Source: Limisphaerales bacterium (GTDB lineage Bacteria > Verrucomicrobiota > Verrucomicrobiia > Limisphaerales > UBA11358). From it: DNA of 64,000 bases. Location: the NCBI GenBank assembly GCA_037200545.1, contig JBBCGE010000003.1, positions 6,750-70,749 of the forward strand. Direction: 5' to 3'. Shown piece by piece: positions 31,420 through 33,384 of the stretch. A program made the position numbers and the translations under genes. The stretch's first letter is position 1. The number at the start of each line of letters is the position of its first letter. The notes under the pieces were generated by a model. It did not search any database, was not told the origin of the DNA, and saw only the letters and a list, made by a program, of their open reading frames with translations.

Positions 31420-32927
31420 AAAACACTTTGTCACAGCCAGCACCGCCAGAGAGCCAAGTTGATTCGCCACTTTGGCAACCAGCGATTGACGTTCACGAAC
31501 GCGACTGGAACGTATGTGAATTTCCGTTATGATTCGATTGGCCAGTTGAAGGTGGCGGACAGCACGGTGAACACGGAAGACCGGGGTTATCAATATGACA
31601 CGGCATGGAACCTGAACCGGCTTACAAACAACGGGTCGCCCGCAACTTTCAGCGTGGACGGAAAAAATCAATTAACCACGATTGGAAGCGGCCATTACTA
31701 TTATGATGGCAATGGCAATCTCACGAACGATTCCAGCCTGCATGTCGCCACCAACTATTATGCCTATGACGACGAAAACCAACTGATTGCGGTGCAGCCT
31801 TTTGGGGGGGGCGACGATGCAGTTTGTTTATGACGGCTTAGGCCGGCTGCGCGCACAACTACAATGGCAGACAAATGCCATCGGTGGCGGTGGCGGCGGG
31901 GGCGGTGACACAGATGCCATGCGGGGCGGGGCCACGACCGACAGCGATGGGCCAATAGGCGACGTGTCCTTGATGAGCGGCATTTATTATATTTACGATG
32001 GGCATCGGGTGATTCAGGAGCGGGACACCAACAACACGCCGACGGTGAGCTATACGCGGGGAAAGACTTGTCAGGCAGCCTAGGAGGCGCGGGCGGGGTT
32101 GGTGGATTGCTGGCACGCTCGGATACTTTTTATTCCGGCAACTTCACGAGCCATGCTTTTTATCATGCAGATGGAAACGGGAACATCACTTACCTTGTTG
32201 ATGGCAGTCAGGCTTTGGCTGCGAGCTATCGTTATGATGCGTTTGGCAATTTGCTCAATTCCAGTGGCCCGCTGGCCAGCGACAACACCTACCGCTTTTC
32301 CAGCAAGGAATGGGTTCCAAGCGTGAATGGGTATTATTATCTTTACCGCTTTTATCGGCCAGATTTGCAGCGATGGTTGAATCGCGATCCGATTGAGAAT
32401 GGGGAGGCTTCAATCTCTATGGATTCATTGGAAACGATCCATTAAACTGGGTAGATAAATATGGTTTAATTATTACAATTTGCGGCAGTATGTCTTTTAT
32501 GGAAAAAGTGAACGAGGCTCTTAAGGAACTTCAAAATTCGAAGCGTGGGAAGGAATTATACGACGAAGCACTAAATAGTACGAACACTTTGACAATTAGT
32601 GAAGGTGAAAATTCTCTCGGAGGGGGTGATATTCGTTTCTTTGATTCTTCTGTCTGGCTTAATCCTGAGTCGCCGAATTTCCTGTCGTCAGGCCAACAAA
32701 AAGCAAGTGAAAAAGACGGTGAACAAGTACCAAACACTTCTCACGGTGGTGTCGTTGTACTCGCACACGAAATGGGCCATGCGGCGGGGTATTCAGATGA
32801 TCCTAACAATTCTAATGCAAGAGGTAATAACATCTTGGAAAATGAAAACCCAGTTAGGGATTATTATCATTTTGATAAAAGGACAACAACTAGCGGAGCT
32901 TCAGTTTATCCGAGGAACAAAAAGTAA
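31420..32927 (+). pseudogene. 5'-truncated Rhs/YD-repeat C-terminal fragment with HExxH toxin tip (three further frame breaks)
   Basis: YD repeats are present (YYYDGNGNLT, YAYDDENQLIAV, FVYDGLGRLR, YIYDGHRVIQE, YRYDAFGNLL), as is the core-end motif [41 protein letters not shown] once the frame is corrected near 32395. A 145-aa tip follows (32490-32927) with VLAHEMGHAAGY. The frame opens only at 31420, so there is no Rhs N-terminus or shell start. Confidence 0.75.
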
Positions 32928-32937
32928 AAATGTTAAA

Positions 32938-33384
32938 ATGATGAAAACAAGACACTTTGTTTACTATATTTCCAGCTTGGCAATAATTTTTTCAGGGTGT
33001 GTGTGCCAGCATCCTATGGAAAAAGAGACTCCCATGGAGAAGGAGTTTCTAAGAAAAGAACTCTCAGGTGATTTACGGCAAATTCTAGTCAGTGAGGCCG
33101 AGATTCAAAAATTGTCGAATGAGGGGAATTGCCTGATGATCTACGGCCTTCACATAAACGAAAAAAAATATTGGCGCAATCTGTCAGTAGGAACTGGTAA
33201 ACAATTAGAAGATGTTCTAAATTATTATGGAAATAGTGCTTTTGTTTGGGATTCTGCTTTAATCGTGGCGAAAAAAGATATGATTTTGCGGAGGCCAGAT
33301 TGGCACGAACGCGTGAGTACAAACTTCAATAAAGTAATAATAACTCCGGCGATATACTTCGGTTTTTTCCACTCGAATAAATGA
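32938..33384 (+). CDS. putative immunity lipoprotein for the Rhs HExxH tip
   Basis: An ATG ATG start lies at 32938, 11 nt after the toxin stop. The lipobox-like signal is MMKTRHFVYYISSLAIIFSGC. The sequence is visibly AT-rich and matches no family I recognise. The upstream part of the track ORF (32599-32937) is out-of-frame overlap with the toxin. Confidence 0.55.
   Translation: MMKTRHFVYYISSLAIIFSGCVCQHPMEKETPMEKEFLRKELSGDLRQILVSEAEIQKLSNEGNCLMIYGLHINEKKYWRNLSVGTGKQLEDVLNYYGNSAFVWDSALIVAKKDMILRRPDWHERVSTNFNKVIITPAIYFGFFHSNK

Follow-up and report, generated by a model that had tools for sequence, protein, structure and literature searches.

A likely orphan Rhs toxin/immunity cassette with an M91/HopH1-type zincin tip in a Limisphaerales bacterium (Verrucomicrobiota)

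The closest described counterparts of the element reported here are the orphan rhs-CT/rhsI modules of Enterobacteria (Salmonella, Dickeya, and E. coli), in which a truncated core ending in the core-end motif is followed by a divergent, low-GC tip and an adjoining immunity gene, and which form arrays located 3' of a main rhs gene. These modules reportedly undergo C-terminal displacement and become activated by recombination (Jackson 2009; Koskiniemi 2014). We analyzed a 64,000-nucleotide stretch of DNA (64 kb, hereafter the window) of a 484,950-bp contig from the metagenome-assembled genome (MAG) of a Limisphaerales bacterium belonging to the phylum Verrucomicrobiota, with a particular emphasis on the element at 31420-33384. 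This element is likely an orphan, 5'-truncated Rhs C-terminal (Rhs-CT) toxin/immunity cassette composed of an M91/HopH1 zincin tip and a putative cognate immunity gene. It resembles the enterobacterial modules in its truncated core, low-GC tip, and adjoining immunity gene, and an array of the enterobacterial type was seen in a related locus (L001). Unlike the enterobacterial modules, the cassette belongs to a member of the Verrucomicrobiota and occurs singly, the 31 kb on its 5' side being free of a main rhs gene; recombination is reported for the enterobacterial orphans, whereas for this cassette we infer it.

Regarding the toxin domain, NleD cleaves host mitogen-activated protein kinases, and M91/HopH1-type zincins are known as anti-eukaryotic effectors. 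Tox-HopH1 of the NleD/HopH1 family, characterized by HExxH and [DE]N motifs, was defined as a polymorphic-toxin domain found with RHS repeats, and no immunity protein was given for it (Zhang et al., 2012, PMC3482391). The M91 effector Tpe2 is a predicted type VI secretion system (T6SS) effector in Pseudomonas, for which a motif of the RxxY type, similar to that of botulinum neurotoxins (BoNT), was reported (PMC9846239). The Salmonella Tox-HopH1 is likewise a predicted T6SS effector and is regarded as anti-eukaryotic (PMC12994826). The tip examined in this study is similar to Tox-HopH1/M91 in exceeding the PF14891 cutoff, in carrying HExxH and [DE]N, in its location C-terminal to RHS repeats, and in a weak affinity to zincins of the BoNT and anthrax lethal factor type. 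In contrast to NleD proper, it is a distant member (38 bits over profile positions 5-115 of 176), and, unlike the catalogued Tox-HopH1 proteins, members of its clade nearly always have a small exported protein encoded 3' of the tip. The cassette and its borders comprise the following features (window coordinates):

31365-31419, forward strand: spacer, AT-rich (34.5% GC) and interrupted by stops in each forward frame; forms the 5' breakpoint of the Rhs homology
31420-32468, forward strand: C-terminal fragment of the Rhs core with about eight YD-type repeats (52.2% GC), requiring three 1-bp corrections
32227-32468, forward strand: RHS repeat-associated core domain (TIGR03696, residues 272-350 of the corrected product) with a predicted autoproteolysis-type core-end motif
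32469-32927, forward strand: predicted toxin tip, Peptidase_M91/Tox-HopH1, 152 amino acids (aa), 40.7% GC, PF14891 match
32938-33384, forward strand: immunity candidate lipoprotein of 'family B' (38.3% GC), based on the open reading frame (ORF) and on homologues beside M91 Rhs tips
33563-33600, no strand assigned: terminator-like, GC-rich hairpin with T-runs on both strands, from a terminator scan and the sequence

Judged by its sequence, the tip is a zinc metallopeptidase toxin domain of the Peptidase_M91/Tox-HopH1 family. An earlier interpretation made from the letters alone (the sequence-only reading) had left it unclassified; however, its scores of 37.9-38.2 bits exceed the PF14891 (Peptidase_M91) cutoff of 25, and it is equivalent to the Tox-HopH1 domain defined by Zhang et al. 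(2012). The PF14891 model is also matched by 22 of the 24 aligned relatives. The identical protein MEJ0089795.1 (P0001), called as a 149-aa coding sequence (CDS), is named by NCBI 'MAG: M91 family zinc metallopeptidase [Limisphaerales bacterium]'. The tip comprises 152 aa (32469-32924) after DKYGL; the 145 aa assigned previously are counted only from the first ATG. The HExxH motif recognized in that reading is present as HEMGH at 32766-32780, downstream of VDKYGL. All invariant columns of the alignment (G27, H100, E101, G103, H104, E126, and R138) are retained in the window tip. The conserved Glu126 (32844-32846), located inside NENPVR, is the putative third zinc ligand, and together with N127, which is invariant or nearly so, it provides the [DE]N signature downstream of HExxH.

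The clade to which the tip belongs is rare: a HMMER search of 1.84 billion representatives returned 28 proteins at E<=1e-3, most of which carry a core-end D-x-x-G-[LF] motif 85-112 residues ahead of HExxH. The relatives came from this exhaustive search; when a word index was queried with the tip or the immunity protein, only proteins of the source MAG itself were found. An AlphaFold2 (AF2) model of the tip built from the alignment reached a predicted local distance difference test score (pLDDT) of 92.5 and a predicted template modeling score (pTM) of 0.89. In the Foldseek comparison proposed in the sequence-only reading, no significant solved-structure neighbor was found in the PDB and viral libraries; the weak best matches (E >= 0.01) were anthrax lethal factor, botulinum light chains, and SprT/IrrE-like minimal zincins. 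In a comparison of the tip profile with PDB sequences, matches were limited to the HExxH helix of adamalysins/ADAMs.

The region preceding the tip carries the YD repeats and the Rhs core-end motif that had been recognized at 31.4-32.47 kb. The 502-aa product obtained after three 1-bp corrections, on which the Rhs profile scores were computed, passes TIGR03696 (Rhs_assc_core) at 69.4 bits (cutoff 32.5), with the match covering profile positions 1-76 of 76, as well as the YD-repeat models TIGR01643 (24.5 bits, cutoff 15.8) and PF05593 (24.4 bits, cutoff 22), in agreement with the YD-type motifs visible in the translation. The core end reads ...VDKYGL/IITI, where VDKYGL occupies 32451-32468 and DKYGL (32454-32468) takes the place of the usual DPxGL. 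K stands in place of the proline, a position at which relatives differ as well (R, S, or L). DKYGL is the predicted core-end autoproteolysis-type motif, with a putative cleavage site.

This region had been described as a single frame opening at 31420, which does not hold. The ORF list and three-frame translation show four ORFs, at 31459-31833 (frame 1), 31787-32083 (frame 2), 32068-32445 (frame 1), and 32397-32927 (frame 3), and three frame switches. The first switch lies in a run of eight G residues (G8, 31804-31811) with one G in excess, the sole G/C homopolymer of at least 7 in the 64 kb. The second, at about 32058-32064 (YTRG/KDLSGS), and the third, at 32395/6 within the core-end motif (DPI-G-EWGG), are each one base short; the TIGR03696 match crosses the third, which the '.' in 'DPIGE.GG' had hidden in the sequence-only reading.

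Only the last 330-340 residues or so of the Rhs core, together with the tip, are encoded in the window. Full-length Rhs proteins from related loci (1643-1963 aa) align by tblastn only at 31468-32861, essentially via their last fifth, and their alignments hop frames 1>2>1>3 exactly at the deduced switch points. No match to a Rhs shell was obtained with these queries upstream of 31468, and a complete YD shell (>1000 aa) with an N-terminal secretion/plug region is absent, in line with the earlier observation that a Rhs N-terminus and shell are lacking. The match to the RHS_core equivalog NF041261 reaches 47 bits, compared with a cutoff of 2000, and neither a paralogue of the fragment nor any other Rhs sequence occurs elsewhere in the window. 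The element is thus a Rhs fragment, not a full Rhs member. Because nothing shell-like is found upstream, no paralogue is present in the window, and the spacer at 31365-31419 is rich in stops, the 5' truncation is independent of sequence errors. The caveat raised previously, that a polished sequence might reveal an intact Rhs protein, was apt for the internal frameshifts, but polishing cannot create the missing shell of about 1300-1500 aa.

The base composition of the cassette is uneven. The tip and the immunity gene had appeared AT-rich by eye, and a composition check bore this out, with GC contents of 40.7% and 38.3%, respectively, compared with 52.2% in the core fragment and 53.0% on average across the window. 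GC content over 450 bp reaches its minimum for the entire window (36.2%) at 32801, in the tip/immunity stretch. A low-GC tip and immunity gene beside a core of genome-typical GC content is the usual mark of an exchanged module grafted onto a resident core.

The presence of the adjoining lipoprotein gene, proposed as an immunity candidate, was likewise confirmed. Its ORF starts 10 nt past the tip stop codon and encodes, as read, 148 aa with a lipoprotein-type N-terminus, MMKTRHFVYYISSLAIIFSG followed by the lipobox-type C (signal ...IIFSG/C, Cys at 32998-33000). The protein matched no Pfam or NCBIfam model, and its single-sequence AF2 model (pLDDT 36) is unusable. Compared with protein P0035 from an independent assembly (GCA_015689235.1), which is identical to the window protein over the in-frame part and has an unshifted ending, the last 15 or so codons of the ORF are out of frame owing to a 1-bp deletion (one A lacking) at about 33340-33345. 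The true C-terminus is therefore probably ...NFNKVIINSGDILRFFPLE, with the stop at 33378-33380, and the C-terminal motif of family B, xPGDxVxLxP, is present in the window only in the other frame (SGDILRFFPLE*), as the very ending that P0035 has. The 1148-bp contig encoding P0035 also contains part of the convergent downstream gene; that it ends within the tip gene points to a repeat or a strain-variable boundary there. Family B is composed of genes located directly 3' of six other M91 Rhs tips (L007, L016, L018, L030/L031, and L045), of which that of L031 sits on a 1751-aa full-length Rhs; these other members are firmly linked among themselves.

Pairing of M91 tips with small exported proteins extends beyond family B. 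We collected 38 tip-bearing loci, and the tip ORF could be extracted in 35; the loci scan was run with a 6-sequence tip subset, the 24-sequence alignment being too divergent for it. A small ORF lies 3' of the tip gene in 34 of the 35 loci, at -29 to +98 nt, and 33 of these 34 downstream ORFs, which fall into at least four unrelated families, encode an N-terminal hydrophobic or lipobox segment. The immunity families gave no Pfam or NCBIfam matches, except for a sub-threshold PepSY-type match of one sister-family member. Tip identity amounts to 38.9% within and 28.9% between downstream-gene families (permutation p ~2e-4, a value inflated by sequence relatedness). Tip similarity tracking the downstream family is, at the level of sequence comparison, the pattern expected of cognate toxin/immunity pairs.

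M91 tips of a sister clade have as partners lipoproteins of 111-270 aa that are weakly PepSY-like. PepSY is a known protease-inhibitor fold. PepSY-type partners were identified in L001 (10625-10969), L002 (6264-6626), L003 (937-1272; L003/L017), L028, and L034 (3907-4713), and in P0019 the toxin and a PepSY-like lipoprotein are called as one fused ORF. The window immunity protein is similar to these partners in its position and in being a predicted exported lipoprotein; in contrast to them, no PepSY similarity was found in this family B protein.

The displaced orphan organization suggested by the sequence-only reading recurs in L001, L007, L009, L011, L014, and L015. Locus L001 encodes a 1643-aa Rhs; 3' of it come small genes and an array of three truncated Rhs fragments that each precede small genes of their own, and an M91 tip closes the array. 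The M91 tip occurs on orphans and also on full-length Rhs genes (L031, see above; L041, 2703 aa; L027, at least 1280 aa). Verrucomicrobiota genomes contain full-length genes (L010, 1963 aa; L013, 1849 aa) as well as truncated fragments of 341-651 aa, and in L014, L015, and L007 truncated fragments occur without a main rhs gene nearby; L009 and L011 are further orphan examples. The Rhs fragment of L008 (from 2196) begins at nearly the same core position as that of the window. The window cassette is an ordinary member of this class, set apart from the textbook case solely by its isolated position. Besides the orphans, small proteins devoid of a YD shell were noted (P0015, P0016, and P0025, as well as loci L035 and L044), in which a Sec signal peptide directly precedes the Rhs core-end motif (FYDP..RW.NRDPI..GG.NLY...DPxGL) and the M91 tip; the general secretory pathway may release such shell-less proteins.

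Based on these data, a mechanism may be proposed. Lacking a YD shell and an N-terminal secretion region, the core fragment would not be deliverable alone, and could instead serve as a silent reserve, from which homologous recombination via the shared core would transfer the tip to a full-length rhs gene at another site of the genome. If the immunity lipoprotein is expressed, it would guard the cell against kin deploying the same toxin. In target bacteria, the most likely site of toxin action would be the periplasm or the cell envelope, because the immunity protein is predicted to be exported and lipid-anchored, as are 33 of the 34 neighbors of related tips. More broadly, we tentatively propose, as a possibility rather than an expectation, that the M91/HopH1-type zincins of Verrucomicrobiota and other environmental bacteria include a clade of antibacterial, periplasm-acting Rhs toxins countered by at least four unrelated exported or lipoprotein immunity families, one of them PepSY-like.

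Several observations weigh against an orphan cassette of this kind. In the RxxY-type motif, R138 is invariant, but the Tyr of most relatives is Thr141 in the window tip. The links of the immunity protein to family B are weak (E ~3e-4 to 5e-3 at 25-29% identity; the set searched was small). No Rhs sequence is present in the 31 kb upstream, so the array position directly 3' of a main rhs gene was not found. The search for a full-length rhs partner sharing the core, advised earlier, identified none in the window, the only part of the genome that could be searched, and the genome set, which does not include the source MAG, yielded only relatives of 60% identity or less. Finally, three frame breaks occur in about 600 bp, far more densely than in the adjacent intact 10-kb ORF. 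The last of these observations, together with a fourth break at the immunity 3' end, the location of one break in the G8 tract (a natural slippage site), and the fact that no main rhs gene accompanies the fragment within the window, would fit a decaying pseudogene remnant with real frameshifts and a dead toxin, in which at most an orphan immunity gene is kept. Genuine decay retains some probability, but we consider this explanation unlikely. The four 1-bp frame disruptions of the cassette (three in the core, one in the immunity gene) are most likely MAG assembly errors rather than biological decay, because the same type of indel breaks nearby housekeeping genes and P0035 is unshifted in an independent assembly, where the immunity C-terminus is intact. 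The M42 aminopeptidase gene (34808-35902, reverse strand) is split into three frames by two indels, and after correction a single Pfam match spans 1-288 of 292 of the model (278 bits); lnt, encoding apolipoprotein N-acyltransferase (50752-52707, reverse strand), is split twice, a gene encoding a LamG-domain protein (about 43600-43700, reverse strand; ~43.65 kb) once, and a hypothetical gene (33599-34416, reverse strand) is apparently broken twice. At least six well-supported indels lie between 31.8 and 35.2 kb, compared with none in the adjoining 10-kb ORF, and the indel cluster as a whole spans 28.3-35.2 kb, which looks like a patch of unpolished assembly. Moreover, the cassette coding sequence is otherwise well conserved, with no in-frame stops and with all catalytic residues kept. 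The G8 tract was also considered as a phase-variation switch, which is disfavored by two further non-repeat indels in the same gene and similar ones in housekeeping genes; it could be a slippage-prone site, which is indistinguishable from sequencing error.

The poor consensus quality visible in the region also bears on whether the contig is correctly joined. A full-length rhs gene might end in this tip, with the contig joining its 3' end to unrelated DNA, for instance by repeat collapse. Rhs cores are classic assembly-breaking repeats, and the short-read assembly of the same element breaks within the tip gene. However, the junction resembles a normal AT-rich intergenic spacer past a gene end rather than an abrupt coding fusion, and relatives often carry orphans cut at similar points of the core (L008 at 2196, P0007, L009, L011, L014, and L015). 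Misassembly is the least probable of the alternatives. Hardly more credible is a self-standing small protein, either a 'mini-Rhs' of about 490 aa from TTG 31459 or M91 alone from ATT 32478 or ATG 32490, expressed and exported or released by another route. The 149-aa M91 CDS called by NCBI and the shell-less relatives combining a Sec signal, the core end, and M91 (P0015, P0016, and P0025) speak for such a product, but neither a signal peptide nor another secretion domain is encoded in the window fragment, promoter-like sites in the scanned region are no more frequent than in shuffled sequence, and a product from ATG 32490 would lose the first beta-strand of the confident AF2 model. An orphan, 5'-truncated toxin/immunity cassette thus remains the explanation that we favor.

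At its 3' end, the cassette is plausibly closed by the hairpin at 33563-33600, which is also placed to serve the convergent gene at 33599-34180 (reverse strand); the number of terminator-like sites detected in the region by the terminator scan is not above the shuffled expectation. No direct or inverted repeats flanking the cassette were found, and no family was present in an Rfam scan.

On the 5' side, the nearest genes are unrelated to Rhs. A 3360-aa exoprotein ORF encodes M36 fungalysin, IgGFc-binding, PKD, cadherin-like, and Big domains, and the exoprotein gene (18333-30251, forward strand), as judged from its reading frames, probably continues to 30251 via about three frameshifts (~28.36, ~29.0, and ~29.47 kb). 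The extension displays alpha/beta-hydrolase-like motifs (VFVHG...GHSLG) and matches no Pfam model. Three nt past the exoprotein end lies a gene encoding a signal-anchored protein of about 370 aa (30255-31364), itself split twice; apart from the exoprotein domains named above, the upstream genes gave no Pfam or NCBIfam matches. The suggestion that the giant exoprotein and the cassette form an antagonism or virulence island was not supported, as the exoprotein and the gene at 30255-31364 have no relatives in any of 49 related loci and no Rhs content. We also rejected the Rhs fragment as the C-terminus of the gene at 30255-31364, given the all-frame stops in the 34.5%-GC spacer, the absence of upstream Rhs homology, and the absence of relatives of that gene. 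Further away, the window encodes a 1502-aa BspA-type leucine-rich-repeat protein (9585-14093, reverse strand; PF13306, 892 bits) and Ig/LamG giants at 40331-44276, which together show that large surface proteins abound in the neighborhood. After the tip/immunity stretch, GC content is next lowest in the window (about 37-38% over 450 bp) at 45250-45850, near the start of the gene at 44416-45393 (reverse strand) and in the intergenic region before 46021.

The toxin domain and the textbook orphan Rhs architecture are already known, and the apparent ORF structure of the element is distorted by indels that are most likely assembly errors. What is mildly new is that M91 Rhs tips are almost always (34 loci) paired with small exported proteins of several families that co-vary with the tip. 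This study adds Verrucomicrobiota examples of Rhs C-terminal displacement and supplies candidate immunity proteins that published catalogues lack. The pairing argues for an antibacterial, envelope-directed role in a protease family usually deemed anti-eukaryotic. If true, these would be the first toxin/immunity pairs for the M91/HopH1 family, and they would point to an envelope substrate.

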